Origin: a virus
Taxonomy: Duplodnaviria; Heunggongvirae; Uroviricota; Caudoviricetes
Direction: 5' to 3' (one strand)
Length of the DNA stretch: 6,185 nucleotides
Virus record (IMG/VR): IMGVR_UViG_2778261570_000026
This document shows positions 84 through 6,185 of this stretch, piece by piece; position 1 is the stretch's first letter, and each line of letters starts with the position of its first letter. The notes below the pieces were generated by a model, which ran no database searches, was not told the DNA's origin, and was given only the letters and a program-made list of their open reading frames with translations. A program made the translations under genes and the position numbers.

Positions 84-383
84 ATGAAACAGAAAATTTC
101 TGGCTTTACTGCCAGCGGCCCCGCTCGGCCTGAAATCCACCCCGGCGATATTTTCCGGGATAACTACGGCGGCACGGTAACGATAAAAAGCGTGGCAGGA
201 CGGTGCGTTACTTACCGCCGTGATGGGTACGGCTATGACTGTGTGATGCCTGTTTATCAGTTCCGGCGTGATTTTTCACTGATACAGGCCACACCACGCA
301 AACAGCCCACCAGCAACGCAAAGGCACAGGCAAATATTCAGAAAATGAAAAACATGATTAACGCATTCAGGGGCAAAAAATGA
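84..383 (+). CDS. Hypothetical protein (99 aa), translationally coupled to the replication gene
   Basis: ATG at 84 is preceded by GAGGA at 71-75 (8-nt spacer). The stop TGA (381-383) overlaps the ATG of the next gene (380-382) in an ATGA junction. I recognise no family for the protein. Confidence 0.55.
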   Translation: MKQKISGFTASGPARPEIHPGDIFRDNYGGTVTIKSVAGRCVTYRRDGYGYDCVMPVYQFRRDFSLIQATPRKQPTSNAKAQANIQKMKNMINAFRGKK

Positions 384-1795
384 AACTGGCACCGAACTTA
401 AAAAAACAGCCACACGACAAAATGACCGAAGTCATTATTTTTGCGGGTAGTGATGCCTGGGCGCACGCGAAACAGTGGCAGGAACAGGACGGACGACTTG
501 CTGGCGACAACGTGCCACCTGTATGGCTTGGAGACAGCCAGCTTGACGAACTGGCAGACCTGAAAATCATCGACGATGGTCGCTATTGTGTCCGGCTGTA
601 CAAGGCAGGCCACATCAAGCCGTCAAATATTAATGCCATCGGGCAAAAACTGGCGGCGGCAGGTGTACGGGATGCGAATTATTACCCTGAGGGAATGCAC
701 AGCCAGAAGCTGGAGAACTGGCACGACTACCTGCAACGGATCCGCGAACAGGCAGAGCGCGGGGAAATTCTTACTGACGAGCAATACAGCCAGCGAAAAA
801 CCACGCTACCAATGAGTATTGGATCTGCAGGGTACGACACACAGCTTGATTATGTCGTTAAGGGCGTGATTCCGGCTAATTCATTGTGCAGCACATACGG
901 CGCGAGCGGTTCCTATAAATCGTTCCTCGCGTGTTCCTGGGCGTGTCATGTTGCCACGGGGCGCCACTGGGGAGGCCGCAGGGTTGCGCATGGTTCGGTG
1001 ATGTATGTCGTCGGTGAAGGGGGGATAGGTGTCCCCCGTCGTATCAAGGCATGGGAAATCGTTAATGATAAACGGGTGGAAAATCTGTACCTGGTAAATC
1101 GCCCGATTTTTCCGGCGGTCCCGCTTGATGTTGATGAGATGGTCATCGCTTCCCGTCAGGTTGAACGGGAAACGGGTAAACCGGTACGCATGATTATTCT
1201 GGATACGCTGGCGCGTTGCTTTGGCGGTAATGATGAAAATGACGCGCGGGATATGGGGGCGTTTATCCGTGGATGTGACGAACTGAAACGACGCACAGGG
1301 GCCACGGTACTGGTGGTTCACCATTCCGGCAAGGATGAAACAAAGGGGGCGCGTGGTTCCAGTGCATTTCGTGCATCTCTGGACGCTGAATACCGTATTC
1401 GCCGTGAAGGTGCGGACAGTGAAGCCCTGGTTATCTCCTGCACCAAAATGAAGGATGCGGAGGAACTGAAAGAGGCTGCATATGATTTACGCGTGGTGGA
1501 GCTTTTTACCGACACTGACGGGGAGTTAATCACGTCGCTGGTGGTTGTGGATAAGCCGCGCCCACCTGTTGAACTGGAACGCATCGAGGAAGCCGGGAAC
1601 AAGACGGAGAATCACGCCGCGCTATGGGGCTGTATCCGTTCACGCACACAGCGCGGCGATAAATGCACTATCCCGTTGTTGCGTGATGATATGAAAAAGC
1701 TGGGGTATGAGATGAAACACTTCCGGCGCTGGCTGTACAAGCTGGAAGGTGATGGCGTTATTGCTATTGACGGTGATGACGTGCGCCCACTGTAA
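380..1795 (+). CDS. Replication initiator/helicase-type protein: RepA-like RecA-fold P-loop NTPase (AAA_25-like) with a ~140-aa N-terminal domain
   Basis: 471-aa ORF. C-terminal half carries a P-loop-like segment (TYGASGSYKSF), a Walker-B-like hydrophobic strand ending in Asp (RMIILDTLA) and a VVHHSGKD motif, matching the pattern of RSF1010-RepA/AAA_25-type replicative NTPases in phages and plasmids. An iteron array begins at its stop codon. Family assignment is from motif reading only. Confidence 0.75.
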   Translation: MKLAPNLKKQPHDKMTEVIIFAGSDAWAHAKQWQEQDGRLAGDNVPPVWLGDSQLDELADLKIIDDGRYCVRLYKAGHIKPSNINAIGQKLAAAGVRDANYYPEGMHSQKLENWHDYLQRIREQAERGEILTDEQYSQRKTTLPMSIGSAGYDTQLDYVVKGVIPANSLCSTYGASGSYKSFLACSWACHVATGRHWGGRRVAHGSVMYVVGEGGIGVPRRIKAWEIVNDKRVENLYLVNRPIFPAVPLDVDEMVIASRQVERETGKPVRMIILDTLARCFGGNDENDARDMGAFIRGCDELKRRTGATVLVVHHSGKDETKGARGSSAFRASLDAEYRIRREGADSEALVISCTKMKDAEELKEAAYDLRVVELFTDTDGELITSLVVVDKPRPPVELERIEEAGNKTENHAALWGCIRSRTQRGDKCTIPLLRDDMKKLGYEMKHFRRWLYKLEGDGVIAIDGDDVRPL

Positions 1796-1990
1796 AAAGT
1801 GGGTAGTAAAAGTGGGGAGTGTGGGGAATTTAACAAAATTGAAACGCGATTCCCCACTTTCCCACCTGTATATACCCCAAAAAGTGGGGAGTAAAAAATA
1901 CATTGAAAAACATCACGTTAGAATCACAAAAAAAAGAAGTGGGGAGACGTTGGGTAATTTCAAAAAGTGGGTAGTAAAAGTGGGGAGCAG
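1794..1990. repeat. Iteron-type replication origin (candidate ori)
   Basis: Direct copies of AGTGGG(G/T)AG at 1798-1806, 1811-1819, 1883-1891, 1938-1946, 1966-1974 and 1979-1987, with degenerate copies at 1820-1828 and 1949-1957. One inverted copy (TTCCCCACT) at 1850-1858. A perfect 26-bp direct repeat (AAAAAGTGGGTAGTAAAAGTGGGGAG) at 1794-1819 and 1962-1987 bounds an A-rich stretch (about 1892-1937). Sits in the non-coding gap right after the rep gene. Confidence 0.7.
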
Positions 1991-1996
1991 TGAGGA

Positions 1997-2248
1997 ATGA
2001 CCAGAAAAACCAGAGATAAGACAGCGCCAAAATATCGCGCATTAGACATGACAGAGCACGCCTTAAAGGTGGCAATCAGAACGATAGACCGCCATGCCGG
2101 GGAAGGATACGCGAAAGCACATCCCGAACTGATAAGCGCATTCATGACCACAGCGGCGGCAAACTTTGCCACGCTGACCGAAAGGGAGATTGCCGAAGCG
2201 GAACAGGTGACAACCATCAACGTTAAAACCGGAGAGCATACAGCATGA
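1997..2248 (+). CDS. Hypothetical protein (83 aa), translationally coupled to ssb
   Basis: ATG at 1997 has GGGGAG at 1982-1987 upstream (9-nt spacer). Stop TGA (2246-2248) overlaps the ssb ATG (2245) in an ATGA junction. No recognisable family. Confidence 0.5.
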   Translation: MTRKTRDKTAPKYRALDMTEHALKVAIRTIDRHAGEGYAKAHPELISAFMTTAAANFATLTEREIAEAEQVTTINVKTGEHTA

Positions 2249-2667
2249 CAGCACAGATAGCGGCTTACGGGCGGCTGGTGGCTGACCCGCAGTTAAAGAC
2301 CACCAGCAAGGGAACACAAATGGCGATGGCGAGTATGGCGGTTCCCCTGCCGTGCAGCCAGGCCGATGACGGAACGGCGACGATGTGGTTATCCGTCCTG
2401 GCGTTTGGCAGACAGGCCGACGCACTGGCCAGACACCACAAAGGCGAACTGGTGAGCGTGGCGGGTAACATGCAGGTAAGCCAGTGGACAGGCCAGAACG
2501 GCGAAACGCGGCAGGGCTGGCAGGTTATCGCAGACAGCGTAATCAGTGCGCGAACGGCGCGACCGGGCGGCAAAAAAGGCCAGCAGGGCCAGGCTACTGA
2601 CGCACTGAACAGGGCAAAACAACAGGCGGGAAATGATGCCCCGTACGGGGATAACATATCGTTTTAA
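2245..2667 (+). CDS. ssb: Single-stranded DNA-binding protein (OB-fold SSB family)
   Basis: 140-aa protein that aligns by eye with the E. coli SSB OB-fold: GRLVADPQL vs GNLGQDPEV, WLSVLAFGRQAD vs WHRVVLFGKLAE, KGELVSVAGNMQVSQWTGQNGETRQ vs [24 protein letters not shown]. Short Gly/Gln-rich tail ending in DNISF, resembling the SSB C-terminal DDDIPF tip. Confidence 0.8.
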   Translation: MTAQIAAYGRLVADPQLKTTSKGTQMAMASMAVPLPCSQADDGTATMWLSVLAFGRQADALARHHKGELVSVAGNMQVSQWTGQNGETRQGWQVIADSVISARTARPGGKKGQQGQATDALNRAKQQAGNDAPYGDNISF

Positions 2668-2681
2668 GCAACGAGTGACAG

Positions 2682-2707
2682 AAGCCGGGATTTTTCCCGG
2701 CTTTTTT
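2682..2707 (+). terminator. Rho-independent terminator after ssb
   Basis: Stem AGCCGGGA (2683-2690) pairs with TCCCGGCT (2695-2702) around a TTTT loop, followed by a T-run (2702-2707). Confidence 0.7.
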
Positions 2708-2713
2708 GTGCGC

Positions 2714-2746
2714 AAAAAAATCCCCCGGGATGAGGTTCCGGGGGAT
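2714..2746 (-). terminator. Second hairpin oriented as a minus-strand intrinsic terminator (together with 2682-2707 forms a bidirectional terminator)
   Basis: 9-bp inverted repeat ATCCCCCGG (2720-2728) / CCGGGGGAT (2738-2746). The A7 run at 2714-2720 is a U-run after the stem only when read on the minus strand. Confidence 0.4.
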
Positions 2747-2807
2747 TTCATACCGCTAACGTGATTAATGCTGAATGACTCTGTGGTACAAGGATTAAAA
2801 CCACGGC

Positions 2808-2875
2808 ATGATGATTTCATGATTTGCAATAACAGTCAATTGCATTGCAAAAAATGCAATGATGATTAAAATCAT
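2808..2875 (+). promoter_or_regulatory. Candidate sigma70 promoter of the capsid operon overlapped by operator-like dyads
   Basis: -35 TTGCAA (2845-2850), 16-bp spacer, -10 TAAAAT (2867-2872). Inverted repeat ATTGCATT (2839-2846) / AATGCAAT (2853-2860) spans the -35; palindrome ATGATT-AA-AATCAT (2862-2875) covers the -10. Further TTGCAAT (2824-2830) and ATGATTT copies (2811-2817, 2819-2825) lie upstream. Promoter call is by consensus matching only. Confidence 0.4.
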
Positions 2876-2924
2876 GGCTGACTTTTCGTTATGTTTGTTT
2901 TTTAGTCAAAGAGGAATCTCATTT

Positions 2925-3131
2925 ATGGGAACACAGAAGCCGGGCGGTGTATCCGTGTACATCAGCCCCGATATTATCGCCGCACTTAATGCGCGCTTTG
3001 AGGAGAACGCAGAGGCAGGGAAAAAAGTCGGCCTTGATCCGTTGTGCATGGTGAAGCCGTCAGTCGGCTGGATGGTACGCAGTCATTTACGCGCTGCGCT
3101 TGGCATGAATCAGCCTCATGGGGGTGAGTAA
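2925..3131 (+). CDS. Small protein (68 aa) directly upstream of and coupled to the major capsid gene; function unknown
   Basis: Strong RBS AAAGAGGAA (2909-2917), 7-8 nt before ATG 2925. The ORF-track start at 2859 would place the N-terminus inside the predicted promoter and has no RBS. Stop TAA (3129-3131) overlaps the ATG of the capsid gene (TAATG). Confidence 0.55.
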   Translation: MGTQKPGGVSVYISPDIIAALNARFEENAEAGKKVGLDPLCMVKPSVGWMVRSHLRAALGMNQPHGGE

Positions 3132-4186
3132 TGACAGCGCTGCAACTGGTAAGCACACCAACGCTACTGAAAAATATCGGGCGCGAAGATGTGCCGGAAT
3201 TTAAATTTAATCCGCTCTTTACGACGCTGTTTTTTCCGAATATCGCCACGTTCAGTACGCGAGATATTGCGCTTGATACGCTGGACATTGAAAACGTGGT
3301 CATGAGTCCGTTTTGTTCACCAATGTCAGGCAGTCAGGTTATGCGTGACAAAGGTTTTACAACGAACACTTTCACGCCGGGTTATATGAAGCCCAAACAC
3401 GTTATTGATCCCACTAAAACAATCATGCGCATGGCTGGAGAACAGATCGGCAATGGTCAGTCTTCCCCGGCACTACGCCGCGTAAAAATGGTTCACGACA
3501 GCCAGAAAAAACAGCTTGCTGCCATCAAAGCGCGTGTTGAATGGCTGGCGGTCAATGCCATCACAACAGGCCGTAACGTTATCGAAGGCGAAGGCATTGA
3601 GCGTTATGAAATTGACTGGGGATTACCCGCAACCAATCACATTACACAGGCTGGCGGGAAAGAATGGTCAAAACAGGATGCCGAGACGTTTGATCCGATA
3701 AGCGACATTGAGGCTTACGCTGATTTTTCCGAAGGTACGGTAAATATTATCGTCATGGGTGGCGAAGCCTGGCGTATTTTGCGCTCGTTCCGTCGATTCC
3801 GCGAACTCCTGGACACCCGCCGCGGTTCAAACTCGTCACTTGAACTTGCGCTAAAAGATTTGGGCGGTGTTGTCAGCTTCAAGGGGTATCTCGGTGATGT
3901 GGCGCTCGTGGTTTATTCCGGTCGTTATGACGACGAAAACGGGCAGCAGCAATATTTCCTGAAACAAAACATGATGGTTTTCGGCAATACCGAAAATAAA
4001 GGTCTTGTTGCTTATGGTGCCATCATGGATCAGGACGCGGCACGCGAGGGATTTTCTGAGGGGATGTACTACCCGAAAAATTATATCGTACCGGGCGATC
4101 CGGCGATTGAATACGTGCAGACGCACAGCGCCCCGCAGCCAGTACCCGTGGATATTGGTCGCTTTGTTACCGTCGAAGTGAAATAA
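3131..4186 (+). CDS. Major capsid protein, phage lambda gpE family
   Basis: 351-aa protein with long collinear blocks matching lambda gpE as I remember it: KFKF(N/D)PLF, (E/T)FTPGY(V/M)KPKH, ITQ(S/A)GG(T/K)EWSK, DIEAYA, VNIIV, DTRRGSNS, VS(Y/F)KG, GDVA(I/L)VVYSG, YPKN, GDPA. Length is also close to gpE (341 aa). SD-like GGGGGTGA lies just upstream. Confidence 0.9.
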   Translation: MTALQLVSTPTLLKNIGREDVPEFKFNPLFTTLFFPNIATFSTRDIALDTLDIENVVMSPFCSPMSGSQVMRDKGFTTNTFTPGYMKPKHVIDPTKTIMRMAGEQIGNGQSSPALRRVKMVHDSQKKQLAAIKARVEWLAVNAITTGRNVIEGEGIERYEIDWGLPATNHITQAGGKEWSKQDAETFDPISDIEAYADFSEGTVNIIVMGGEAWRILRSFRRFRELLDTRRGSNSSLELALKDLGGVVSFKGYLGDVALVVYSGRYDDENGQQQYFLKQNMMVFGNTENKGLVAYGAIMDQDAAREGFSEGMYYPKNYIVPGDPAIEYVQTHSAPQPVPVDIGRFVTVEVK

Positions 4187-4196
4187 AGGGGATCGT

Positions 4197-4526
4197 ATGC
4201 CAACACCTTACACGCAATTCCTTTCCGGCACGCAGGAACTGGTCAGCACGCTGGCCTGTTTTGCCAGTGCCGGAGAAATTAAAGCGAGAACTCCGCTGAT
4301 GCAGAACGGCGCGGGCCTGATGGTTGAGTGGGACGGTACACCCGGTAAGGCGGTGTATCTGACCATATCGGACATTAACACGGCCACAAAAAACCGCGCA
4401 CAGGTTTATAAGTGCGGGGTTTTTAATATCGATGAAATTAACTGGCCTGATACAGCGGACACGTTCGAGAAAAAAGTGTCGGCTTTTGTTGGTTCCGGTA
4501 TTTCCGTGCAGCCTTTAGGGCAATAA
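4197..4526 (+). CDS. Head decoration protein, lambda gpD-like
   Basis: 109 aa (lambda gpD is 110). Shares TPLM, WDGT, YK.G.F, WP and KK..AF.G..IS blocks in the same order as gpD. RBS AAGGGGA lies 4 nt before the ATG. Sits immediately downstream of the capsid gene. Confidence 0.7.
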   Translation: MPTPYTQFLSGTQELVSTLACFASAGEIKARTPLMQNGAGLMVEWDGTPGKAVYLTISDINTATKNRAQVYKCGVFNIDEINWPDTADTFEKKVSAFVGSGISVQPLGQ

Positions 4527-4540
4527 TTTTGTGGTGATTT

Positions 4541-4966
4541 ATGACTGAGAAAGCAAATTCAACCAGAGCATTGATCATGGCACTGCCTGAGGCGCAGAAA
4601 TACCCGACGCTTGCGGAAAATCTCGCAAATAATGGCGCATCACTGACAGAAGCCCGAACGGTGCTTACTGCAAAGGCTGAGAGTGATAAACAGCGCATAG
4701 AGGGTATCAAGGCGTTACCGCTGGCATCAAAATACCCTGAGTTCACCAGTAAGCTGATTGAGTGTGGTTCTGAAGTAATGACAGTAACCTATGCACAAAC
4801 GTTACTGGCTGCCGTGGATGCCCAGGCAATGATGCAGGAAAAGAAAACGGCTTTTCTGTTTGATGCGTACATGGAAAAGCACAGCCCGAAATGTGTTGGA
4901 CCAGCAGCCGGTGATGGCAACGCCGGACTGACCGAAGATGAAAAGCTGTTGCTGTCTGTTAAGTAA
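4541..4966 (+). CDS. Hypothetical protein (141 aa) with an internal tandem duplication; last gene of the capsid operon
   Basis: Co-directional, tightly packed after the gpD-like gene and followed by a terminator. Contains two related ~33-aa modules (LPEAQKYPTLAENLANNGASLTEARTVL and LPLASKYPEFTSKLIECGSEVMTVTYAQTLL). No recognisable family. Confidence 0.6.
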   Translation: MTEKANSTRALIMALPEAQKYPTLAENLANNGASLTEARTVLTAKAESDKQRIEGIKALPLASKYPEFTSKLIECGSEVMTVTYAQTLLAAVDAQAMMQEKKTAFLFDAYMEKHSPKCVGPAAGDGNAGLTEDEKLLLSVK

Positions 4967-4980
4967 CTGAAATGAACGTT

Positions 4981-5012
4981 CGCGAGGTTGGCAAGGCCTC
5001 GCGATTTTTTTT
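4981..5012 (+). terminator. Rho-independent terminator closing the capsid operon
   Basis: Stem CGCGAGG (4981-4987) pairs with CCTCGCG (4997-5003) around a 9-nt loop, followed by a T8 run (5005-5012). Confidence 0.7.
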
Positions 5013-5022
5013 GTGTCCGGAA

Positions 5023-5128
5023 CGGTGGTGATCACCCCAATTTTCACGGGTCCTTTCCGGAACCTGAAACACCGGGGGTACGTGTACGCGCAAAAACGCG
5101 CTATTTATGACGCTTTCCGGGAAAGGGT
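5023..5128 (+). repeat. Left copy of an inverted repeat (~100 bp) upstream of the Nu1-like gene
   Basis: Core 5065-5110 equals the reverse complement of 5793-5838 at 40 of 46 positions with no gap, including a perfect 17-mer (5086-5102 = reverse complement of 5801-5817). Weaker similarity extends to about 5023-5128. Contains the palindrome GGTGATCACC (5027-5036) and CTTTCCGG motifs (5053-5060, 5113-5120). Confidence 0.6.
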
Positions 5129-5177
5129 ACACCACCACCACTTGATTAATATTTAATCGCATTATTAAGGTAACGTT

Positions 5178-5618
5178 ATGAATAATAAAGATTGTTTTGT
5201 TAGTCAGCAGGAAATAGCAGAACATTTCAAGGTCAACAGAACCACTATTCGCGCATGGACCAAACAGGGCATGCCGTATCTTGATGCGGATCGCGGAAAG
5301 TCCGGCGGTTATCACATCGGACACACATTATTCTGGTGCATGGGTAAAAGTCATCTTGATGCTATTGAGTACCACGGAGAAACCAGCGCACTGGAAAAGA
5401 TTATGGTTGCCAGGTTGATTTCATCAGAGCGCGACGAGTATTTCAGTGAAGAAACAGAACAGCGATTTGATAATGGTCTGCAGATTTACGGGTACTCGCC
5501 GGAAGATGTGAGCAAGGCACGAAATAAAATGGCTGGCTTTCTGGCTGGGTGGCGTCATGCCGTAGCCGTTCGCCGTGAGCATCTGCAACAATCTGTAGTT
5601 ACAGAGCAGGAAAGCTAA
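5178..5618 (+). CDS. Nu1-like winged-HTH DNA-binding protein: candidate terminase small subunit or packaging-specificity factor
   Basis: 146 aa. The N-terminus (VSQQEIAEHFKVNRTTIRAWTKQGMPYL) closely parallels the lambda Nu1 DNA-binding N-terminus as remembered (KKQLADIFGASIRTIQNWQEQGMPV). The remainder is not recognisably Nu1-like and the protein is shorter than Nu1. No large terminase gene follows. Nu1-like HTHs also occur in small regulators, so the function is uncertain. Confidence 0.55.
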   Translation: MNNKDCFVSQQEIAEHFKVNRTTIRAWTKQGMPYLDADRGKSGGYHIGHTLFWCMGKSHLDAIEYHGETSALEKIMVARLISSERDEYFSEETEQRFDNGLQIYGYSPEDVSKARNKMAGFLAGWRHAVAVRREHLQQSVVTEQES

Positions 5619-5627
5619 TAAGTATGC

Positions 5628-5720
5628 AATACAACAACCGCGTATTTTTGTTAAACCATTTGATTTAATTGGTATTTTTGGAACCATAACATCAAAAAAA
5701 CGTCCTCAGGTTGTTGTATT
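5628..5720. repeat. AT-rich structured non-coding region downstream of the Nu1-like gene
   Basis: 12-bp perfect inverted repeat AATACAACAACC (5628-5639) / GGTTGTTGTATT (5709-5720) brackets two direct repeats GTATTTTTG..AACCAT (5642-5659 and 5672-5687). A third ACAACAACC copy lies at 5768-5776. Confidence 0.45.
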
Positions 5721-5774
5721 TCTTTCAGTTTTCTCTTAGTTATCAAATGGATATAACAAACAATTAAACAACAA

Positions 5775-5880
5775 CCACCCTTCCGAAAAATCTCATAAAC
5801 AGCGCGTTTTTGCGCGTCCCATGACCCCCGGTGTTTCATTTTCCAGGAAGGACCCGCCACAATTACGGCATTGTTTCCCA
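5775..5880 (-). repeat. Right copy (inverted orientation) of the repeat flanking the Nu1-like gene
   Basis: Reverse complement of 5793-5838 matches 5065-5110 at 40 of 46 positions. Flanking similarity is weaker (about 17 of 30 in the outer arm). Confidence 0.6.
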
Positions 5881-5900
5881 TCATCACGGAGGCCATGACA

Positions 5901-6185
5901 ATGACCGAAGCCGAAATGCTCAAAATGATTCGCCGCGTTACCGGAGCCAACCAGGCAGCAGGCAAACAGGAGGCCACGCAGCCGGACAGCGTGATAGCCG
6001 AAAATTACGCGCGTGTGGTGGCTGAGGTGATGCGCCGTGACGGTATTGAGCTTAACGGCGTGGATATGCGCAATATATGCACCAGAGTTCTGGAGATGTT
6101 GTCATACCGTCGCCGCGTGCAGATGTACCAGGAGAAAGAAAAAATTACTTACCACTGGAAGAAGCCGGAGCGGTTACGACGTTAA
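5901..6185 (+). CDS. Hypothetical protein (94 aa)
   Basis: ORF is in frame from 5871, but GGAGG (5888-5892) gives a good spacer only for ATG 5901; ATG 5895 is 2 nt after the SD. Stop TAA is at 6183-6185, the window edge. No recognisable family. Confidence 0.5.
   Translation: MTEAEMLKMIRRVTGANQAAGKQEATQPDSVIAENYARVVAEVMRRDGIELNGVDMRNICTRVLEMLSYRRRVQMYQEKEKITYHWKKPERLRR

Follow-up and report, generated by a model that had tools for sequence, protein, structure and literature searches.

The window examined here is a 6,185-nucleotide stretch of DNA (IMG/VR virus record IMGVR_UViG_2778261570_000026) that is assigned to a virus of the class Caudoviricetes and that carries, from position 84 to its end, a replication module, genes for homologs of lambda head proteins, and a packaging region. 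An original prediction had described this block as a candidate phage satellite with an iteron replicon, lambda-type capsid genes, and an orphan gene resembling that of a small terminase subunit (TerS). The gene order that it gave was borne out, with all open reading frames (ORFs) of the block placed as described on the + strand, and its assignment of proteins to the AAA_25, SSB, gpE-type, and gpD-type families was confirmed by Pfam and PHROG profiles. Two features had gone unnamed: the ORF after the decoration gene is a homolog of the scaffold protein Nu3 and the gpC C-terminus, and an 82-nt inverted repeat (5039-5120 and 5783-5864, 79% complementary) corresponds to two inward-pointing lambda-like cos sites that flank the gene for a helix-turn-helix (HTH) protein. 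In the list below, identities and orthologs refer to EcCICFT073, a phage-inducible chromosomal island (PICI) of Escherichia coli CFT073 (Fillol-Salom et al., 2018, ISME J, PMC6092414; 2019, Mol Cell, PMC6739421).

84-383, +, DUF4222 small protein (Pfam DUF4222 2e-24; 69% identical)
380-1795, +, RepA-type (AAA_25) replication initiator/helicase (Pfam AAA_25 3e-44; PHROG 2850 5e-251)
1794-1987, no strand, iteron origin of replication (six AAAAGTGGG(G/T)AG repeats, spacing 13/72/55/28/13)
1997-2248, +, conserved small ORF of 83 amino acids (aa), overlapping the ssb start (PHROG 1231 3e-50; 75% identical)
2245-2667, +, single-strand DNA-binding protein, SSB (Pfam SSB 9e-16; PHROG 44 2e-37; 69% identical)
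2683-2746, +, intrinsic terminator, AGCCGGGA-TTTT-TCCCGGCT then T6, plus another G+C hairpin; closes the replication operon
2845-2872, +, sigma-70-like promoter candidate of the capsid-gene operon, TTGCAA-16-TAAAAT (consensus match only; sites of this kind are no more numerous in the window than expected by chance)
2925-3131, +, conserved 68-aa ORF, its stop overlapping the capsid start (PHROG 3255 6e-25; 65% identical)
3131-4186, +, gpE-type (HK97-fold) major capsid homolog, full length (Pfam Phage_cap_E 3e-47; ortholog of c1499)
4197-4526, +, gpD-type head decoration homolog (Pfam HDPD 9e-8; PHROG 49 1e-18; ortholog of c1500)
4541-4966, +, Nu3/gpC-C-terminus-type scaffold homolog of 141 aa, ORF141 (PHROG 53, C-terminal end, 2e-8)
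4980-5012, +, strong intrinsic terminator, 10-bp stem then T8; end of the capsid-gene operon
5039-5156, +, cos1, lambda-like cos site (aligned with lambda cos, EcCICFT073 cos1/cos2, and phage cos regions)
5178-5618, +, rppB, redirecting-phage-packaging protein of 146 aa (PDB 6HLK/6HN7 RppC, 1.5e-33 over 135 residues)
5783-5864, -, cos2, inverted lambda-like cos site (cosQ-like 5845-5855; cosN-aligned GGTCATGGGACG 5815-5826)
5901-6185, +, conserved last island ORF of 94 aa (PHROG 1561 2e-48; 73% identical)

Identity and genomic setting of the island

The window is E. coli chromosomal DNA, at least 80% of which is held by 12 complete genomes at 95-98% identity. In two complete genomes, with copies (L001 and L002) that are 96-98% identical to the window, the block forms the right-hand part of an island of 10,921 bp that lies between tRNA-Pro (after yejM) and yejO and that has at each end a 10-bp repeat, core CTCTCGTGCC, of the tRNA-Pro 3' end. 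The window begins 4.1 kb into this island and ends ~0.6 kb short of attR, with neither island end inside it, and the core chromosomal genes yejM and yejO are reached less than 5 kb to its left and less than 1 kb to its right, respectively. The left end of the island encodes an integrase beside tRNA-Pro (Phage_integrase 9e-27; Arm-DNA-bind_3), an AlpA-family regulator (L001 11844-12050; Pfam Phage_AlpA 4.5e-8, above the cut-off) that is downstream of and co-directional with int, and Icd-like genes. No gene for a portal, protease, large terminase (TerL), tail, or lysis protein is present in the island or its flanks in these two genomes, where all island genes are accounted for by annotation. The lack of portal, protease, and TerL genes noted for the window by the original prediction therefore holds outside it as well, and extension of the flanks, as had been proposed, recovered an integrase and att repeats and not the head, tail, and lysis genes in normal phage order that would mark an ordinary prophage. 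Likewise, the idea of a compact, helper-dependent satellite that combines a replication module, capsid homologs, and a packaging-specificity gene is borne out by the att-bounded 10.9-kb island; a phage-plasmid-like nature is not, given that the element sits at a tRNA gene, encodes an integrase, and is bounded by att repeats. The same 10.9-kb structure was found in 21 genomes and the PICI family in ~1900, at dedicated att sites. Some genomes hold two to three island copies with the window-type capsid module at separate sites (NZ_CM143726.1 at 663360 and 4218084; NZ_CP068035.1 at 3 places).

EcCICFT073, when located in the CFT073 genome, was found to be of the same size class and to have the same order from DUF4222 to the last ORF (DUF4222, replicase, small ORF, SSB, 68-aa ORF, 351-aa capsid, decoration, ORF, 144-aa ORF, last ORF), and each window protein finds a syntenic counterpart in it at 29-84% identity. 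The two elements are also alike in the block formed by capsid (c1499), decoration (c1500), ORF, rpp, and last ORF, and in the two inverted cos sites that flank rpp. This gene-for-gene synteny, together with the discussion of capsid and decoration genes in PMC6092414, runs counter to the earlier statement that the exact gene combination was not recognized as a described family. The element type has already been described, with EcCICFT073 as the prototype Gram-negative PICI for which capsid and decoration genes, an iteron origin, and a packaging system have been published. The differences are those of alleles and modules: the island considered here is integrated at tRNA-Pro and not at roxA/phoQ, combines a RepA helicase with AAAAGTGGGGAG iterons where EcCICFT073 combines a primase with CTGTCTACC-type iterons, lacks a PerC gene, carries Rpp allele B instead of A and a capsid allele that is ~64% identical, and has a cosN other than lambda's GGGCGGCGACCT.

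PICIs of the EcCICFT073 type are defined as islands of 10-20 kb that encode a tyrosine integrase and occupy a dedicated att site with direct repeats, and that have an AlpA regulator, a pri or rep gene with an iteron origin directly after it, no lysis, tail, portal, or large-terminase genes, and an Rpp or TerS gene accompanied by a cos site that shares cosQ and cosN with the helper but differs from it in cosB. The definition further includes helper-dependent induction, transfer at high frequency, and interference with the helper, which experiments have demonstrated for EcCICFT073 (PMC6092414, PMC6739421). All defining features that can be tested in sequence were found in the island. All five core components of a PICI in the SatelliteFinder definition (de Sousa et al., 2023), namely integrase, AlpA/MerR/Stl regulator, primase-replicase, capsid-morphogenesis gene, and small-terminase-like gene, were also present by Pfam, PHROG, or PDB homology; it should be noted that this match was judged by homology and that the replicase is RepA-type and not primase-type. 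Thus, the window very probably derives from a 10.9-kb E. coli PICI of the EcCICFT073 family, of which it covers the parts for replication, capsid genes, and packaging. What the present analysis adds is modest: a variant cos class is described together with a candidate helper, the capsid-like genes are placed in evolutionary terms, and the packaging cassette is shown to be polymorphic for an inversion.

The packaging cassette and its candidate helper

The HTH protein encoded between the two cos sites consists of an N-terminal winged HTH that mimics the DNA-binding domain of TerS and a C-terminal dimerization region. It is 84% identical to RppA of EcCICFT073, agrees with the published RppB sequence over the portion displayed in the supplement (PMC6739421), and keeps R21, T22, L51, and F121. 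In RppA, these residues are functionally required for cos1 recognition (R21-T22), TerS binding (L51), and homodimer formation (F121) (PMC6739421). Among E. coli PICIs that encode RppB or RppC (PMC6739421, Fig. S1 and Table S1; PDB 6HLK, 6HN7), the Rpp proteins match that of the window, with DNA-reading and dimerization residues kept, but the cos class beside them differs from that beside the window rppB. The relationship to Nu1, the small terminase of lambda, is more distant. The Pfam Phage_Nu1 profile scores 14.1 bits against the protein (cut-off 30; E 0.037) and covers profile positions 3-32 of 164, i.e., the N-terminal ~30 residues only, while the blastp match to Nu1 spans 40 residues and the protein has 146 aa as compared to 181 in Nu1. 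It is therefore not a small terminase of the lambda Nu1 kind, with an N-terminal winged HTH and a C-terminal gpA-binding region. Of the original prediction, the HTH gene itself stands, while membership in the Nu1 family falls below the Pfam cut-off, and the "orphan TerS-like" gene encodes RppB. Rpp binds the helper TerS and redirects packaging to the island cos, and RppB blocks lambda and phi80 (PMC6739421). RppB is not the independent DNA-recognition subunit once proposed but acts by heterodimerizing with the helper's own TerS (PMC6739421).

In EcCICFT073, cos1 and cos2 flank rpp in the same layout as in the window, and cos1 is needed for transfer (PMC6739421). The window cos1 comprises a cosQ-like GGGTCCTTTCC (5048-5058), 12 positions aligned with lambda cosN, GGTACGTGTACG (5077-5088), a CGCAAAAACGCGCTATTTATGA box (5089-5110), and a PICI-specific cosB-like region that begins with GGGTACACCACCACCACTTGATTAAT (5125-5156). 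Both cos arms retain the cosQ-like GGGTCCT and the CGCT(A/G)TTTATGA box of lambda. No DNA similarity to EcCICFT073 is seen over cosQ and cosN; it resumes at 5099 and then continues at ~86% through the cosB-like region and rpp. Because this similarity starts only after cosN, cosB and rpp form one conserved unit, next to which the cosQ/cosN part has been exchanged. The 12-mer of lambda cosN has only chance-level matches with 3 mismatches in the window. The five other PICI types that were fetched have lambda's exact cosN, as do all lambda-class sites examined, whereas the window and its close relatives have ...AAACACCGGGGGT-N6-ACGCGCAAAAACGC..., so that this lineage has a variant, non-lambda class of cosN, a result that is new here if modest. 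Comparison of the variant-class sites (window 5077-5088 and 5815-5826; L001 ~19062 and ~19811; L016 ~12054; L008 ~6540; L010 ~21097) indicated that the central ~6 nt of the cosN-aligned positions vary even between islands that are 96-98% identical, with the cores ACGTGT, CGGCAG, CATGGG, CTGGGG, CGGTAG, and AGCCAT.

The cassette bounded by the cos sites was observed in both orientations. In the near-identical and otherwise collinear islands of TUM1881 (L017 4417-5448) and CEA224S (L018 4408-5439), the segment equivalent to window 5039-5864 is flipped, with 96% identity between the two versions and terS on the minus strand in one and on the plus strand in the other. No mention of such an inversion was found in the PICI literature examined. 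Flipping mediated by terminase was considered and rejected. Since the cosN cores stay with the outer flanks, the inversion is explained by ordinary recombination, with a crossover within the identical inner stretch of the repeats. Separately, the spacer between rpp and cos2 is A/T-rich (~40% G+C) and apparently non-coding, and contains a perfect 12-nt inverted repeat, AATACAACAACC / GGTTGTTGTATT, at 5628-5639 and 5709-5720.

The variant cos class was also found just 5' of terS in SerU-LTIIb (an LT-IIb prophage fragment), in phage vB_EcoM-705R4, and in a complete-looking prophage of P393-F10, a strain that carries both the island and the variant-cos prophage (L016, NZ_CP076274.1 1110204-1134862). 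The P393-F10 prophage has a full Nu1-A-W-B-C-D-E-FI-FII head set and a baseplate-type tail module. Its TerS is a Nu1 homolog that keeps Y50 and E65, the positions of Nu1 at which lambda mutants escape Rpp (PMC6739421). Its cos shares the cosQ/cosN flanks with island cos1 and then continues with a lambda-like cosB where the island continues with a PICI cosB. Among 5426 complete genomes, the window-type capsid module was present in 21 and the variant-cos/terS prophage in 58; the prophage occurred in 16 of the 21 island genomes as compared to 42 of the 5405 others (Fisher P = 6e-29, a value that ignores strain relatedness). In the 16 genomes with both, the two nearly always occupy loci far apart; besides P393-F10, strains with both include Z0117EC0133 and ETEC1734. 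Because of the shared variant cos class and the co-occurrence of island and prophage, this prophage family, which combines a lambda-type head gene set with a baseplate-type tail, is likely to be the natural helper, rather than lambda or phi80. In the P393-F10 prophage, stx2A/B and a subtilase-type AB5 toxin cluster lie upstream of the lysis genes. The helper assignment bears on the question of which satellites interfere or travel with toxin-converting phages, the toxins being Shiga toxin 2 and subtilase in one host.

The steps by which the island would be mobilized have been shown experimentally in EcCICFT073 (PMC6092414, PMC6739421) and are carried over to this island by orthology. On entry of a lambdoid helper prophage into lytic growth, the island would be excised by its AlpA and integrase, and RepA, with SSB, would copy it from the iteron origin to give concatemers. 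RppB dimers would bind the N-terminal DNA-binding domain of the Nu1-type TerS of the helper, and the resulting RppB-TerS heterocomplex would ignore the phage cosB and recognize the island cosB beside cos1. Because the heterocomplex would read the cosB of the island and not that of the phage, the helper TerL would be recruited to the island, cut its cosN, and package island DNA into heads and tails made by the helper, while packaging of the phage would be blocked. The packaged island DNA would probably consist of ~4-mers (4 x 10.9 = 43.7 kb).

Capsid-type genes and alternative readings of the island

The capsid homolog is matched in the PDB by 3BQW (4e-152), a structure of its own family, and by lambda gpE (7VI9, 2e-87), and is 64.5% identical to c1499 as compared to 44-47% to phage capsid proteins. 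Similarly, the decoration homolog matches gpD/SHP structures in the PDB (5e-9) and is 49-50% identical to c1500 as compared to 30-35% to phage proteins. ORF141 shares 37% identity with the last 130 aa of a prophage gpC (E 2e-9) and 29% with its EcCICFT073 counterpart, and its alignment by hhalign with phage Nu3/gpC C-termini has 97.7% probability (E 2.5e-12); sequence searches of the PDB returned zero matches to ORF141, and the scaffold assignment rests on profile comparison. Scans of a collection with one genome per species, with the single protein and then with a two-sequence alignment, returned no relatives of the capsid gene, and relatives were then taken from the collection of complete E. 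coli genomes. In these, at least three types of PICI capsid protein can be distinguished, with 54-64% identity between types and 41-47% identity to phage proteins, the latter being 54-61% identical among themselves, and the decoration proteins show the same split from those of phages. Ratios of nonsynonymous to synonymous substitution rates (dN/dS), given within types only since the between-type capsid comparison is saturated at synonymous sites, were 0.07-0.14 for capsid, 0.06-0.30 for decoration, 0.08-0.24 for scaffold-like, and 0.12-0.24 for packaging genes (the rpp/terS slot). The split in identity between PICI and phage proteins and the low within-type dN/dS indicate that the capsid, decoration, and Nu3-like genes form an old, maintained, satellite-specific clade under purifying selection. 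Capsid type is independent of packaging type, as capsid genes of the CFT073 type (95-97% identical) occur with RppA or a 180-aa TerS and those of the window type with RppB or a 194-aa TerS.

Capsid genes have been reported in 21 of 29 reference PICIs and stated to be dispensable for transfer (PMC10111431). In EcCICFT073, deletion of c1499 or c1500 left both transfer by the resident helper and interference with lambda unchanged, and EcCICFT073 DNA packaged by lambda was phage-sized (PMC6092414). A search of the literature returned no later resolution of these PICI capsid-gene knockouts without phenotype. The statement of the original prediction that the element supplies its own capsid and decoration proteins is thus unproven, and is contradicted in the model element by the deletions. 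A PICI-type capsid gene is nonetheless present in about a third of complete E. coli genomes, strongly selected and with a deletion that has no known phenotype.

Homologs of the HK97-fold major capsid protein of a helper are likewise carried by other satellites, including SaPIbov5, in the form of Ccm, and PmCI172. Ccm leads to interference and to capsids of small size; no such phenotype has been observed for the E. coli PICI capsid homolog, which is joined here by decoration and scaffold homologs. Helper-embedded PICIs (11capE type, PMC10111431) have the same backbone, capsid and decoration genes included, whereas the island considered here lies at a tRNA gene, apart from its presumed helper. 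One helper-embedded PICI (L014; APEC O2-211, NZ_CP006834.2 1830486-1847477) splits the portal gene of a lambdoid prophage; it carries a single cos site, and its capsid represents a third type, with 55-57% identity to the other two.

Several observations weigh against the interpretation of the island as a classical PICI that is packaged by the variant-cos prophage in helper-made heads. The island and the co-resident prophage differ in the cosN-aligned core, and cleavage of the island cos by the prophage terminase is an assumption. Five of the 21 host genomes are without the proposed helper type, and the statistic for co-occurrence is uncorrected for the relatedness of strains. The published work on RppB used lambda and phi80 and not the proposed helper (PMC6739421), and induction and transfer of this particular island are presumed by orthology with EcCICFT073. 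Finally, strong purifying selection on the capsid-like genes is unexplained if these genes are dispensable. A possible, if rather unlikely, alternative is that the island-encoded capsid, decoration, and Nu3-like proteins form a shell of their own, or a chimeric and potentially smaller one, on the portal of a cognate helper. That helper would be the variant-cos prophage and not lambda or phi80, and the null result obtained with EcCICFT073 would reflect the conditions tested. Consistent with such a role, the three proteins are full length and form a coherent set, the capsid and decoration proteins belong to a clade separate from that of phages (54-64% versus 41-47% identity), dN/dS within types (0.06-0.30) is as low as for the essential rpp/terS slot, and SaPIbov5 Ccm and PmCI172 are precedents that link capsid homologs to small capsids. 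These arguments are countered by the lack of effect of the c1499 and c1500 deletions on transfer by the resident helper or on interference with lambda, the phage-sized DNA packaged by lambda, the published statement that capsid genes are not needed for transfer, and the absence of portal, protease, adaptor, and TerL genes from the island. Were such shells to be formed, these common islands would stand, in functional terms, between classical PICIs and capsid-forming PICIs (cf-PICIs).

The homology of the capsid, decoration, and scaffold proteins and the lambda type of the cos sites could also be accounted for by a decayed or rearranged lambdoid prophage that retains E, D, and a fragment of Nu1, but such an origin is highly improbable. 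The island is compact, its ORFs are intact, and its integrase, AlpA, and iteron replicon are its own rather than those of lambda. In place of the Nu1-A-W-B-C-Nu3-D-E cluster with tail and lysis genes that the prophages used for contrast show in full, the flanks lead directly into chromosomal genes and already refute a remnant. Moreover, the same structure recurs in 21 genomes, and the family in ~1900, at dedicated att sites and under purifying selection, and relatives have been mobilized experimentally (PMC6092414). It is equally hard to credit that the element is a P4-like satellite or a cf-PICI, despite a left end with a P4-type integrase, AlpA, and Icd-like genes and despite capsid-family genes as in cf-PICIs. 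With P4-like satellites it shares only the int, AlpA, and Icd-like genes: Sid, Psu, Delta, Ash/epsilon, and the alpha primase-helicase have no Pfam or PHROG match among the window and left-end proteins, and the cos sites are lambda-like and not P2-type. With cf-PICIs such as EcCIEDL933 it shares the PICI-type left end and capsid-family genes, but cf-PICIs assemble complete heads and have genes for TerL, TerS, portal, protease, and head-tail connectors, and the defining TerL, portal, prohead protease, and head-tail adaptor/connector genes are found neither in the att-bounded island nor among the family matches of the window proteins.

Replication module and minor features

The stop codon of the DUF4222 gene overlaps the replicase start, and the gene is kept just 5' of the replicase in every PICI examined. 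Over the N-terminal ~134 aa, RepA shares 62% identity with the N-terminus of the EcCICFT073 primase-type replicase (window 380-790 versus L007 27242-27650), and the remainder is unrelated. Thus, PICI replicases combine a common N-terminal domain with either of two different catalytic modules, always after the overlapping DUF4222 gene. The iteron array starts at the RepA stop codon and consists of six repeats of 12-13 nt, as compared to 0.1 expected by chance, with none of 200 shuffles reaching six; the origin also has an A/T-rich spacer and, at 1849-1877, an iteron-like copy in inverted orientation. In six islands compared, iteron type co-varied with replicase, in that RepA-type PICIs have the same iterons and spacing and primase-type PICIs have unrelated iterons. 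The iteron replicon is therefore a self-contained module. The terminator hairpin after ssb (2683-2708) was read by eye, having been missed by an automatic terminator scan, and a match of an Rfam model of a Bacillus sRNA to the hairpins at this position was below threshold and dismissed as chance. The 207-bp gene for the 68-aa ORF at the start of the capsid-gene operon is present in all PICIs fetched.

PADLOC identified zero defense-system families among the small ORFs and the two reverse-strand accessory genes of the island. Just inside both island ends is the motif TAGCTACACGTT(T/A)AGCTATACG, which occurs twice near attL (L001 9988-10025) and once near attR (L001 20689-20712); these motifs are probably arm-type binding sites of the integrase. 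Directly after the last ORF, five GTGAC motifs follow one another with exact 10-bp phasing (L001 20177-20226, 7-56 bp beyond the window end), and next to these in L001 is a G/C-rich palindrome, GGGGGGTGTTTAATACCCCCGGGGGG.

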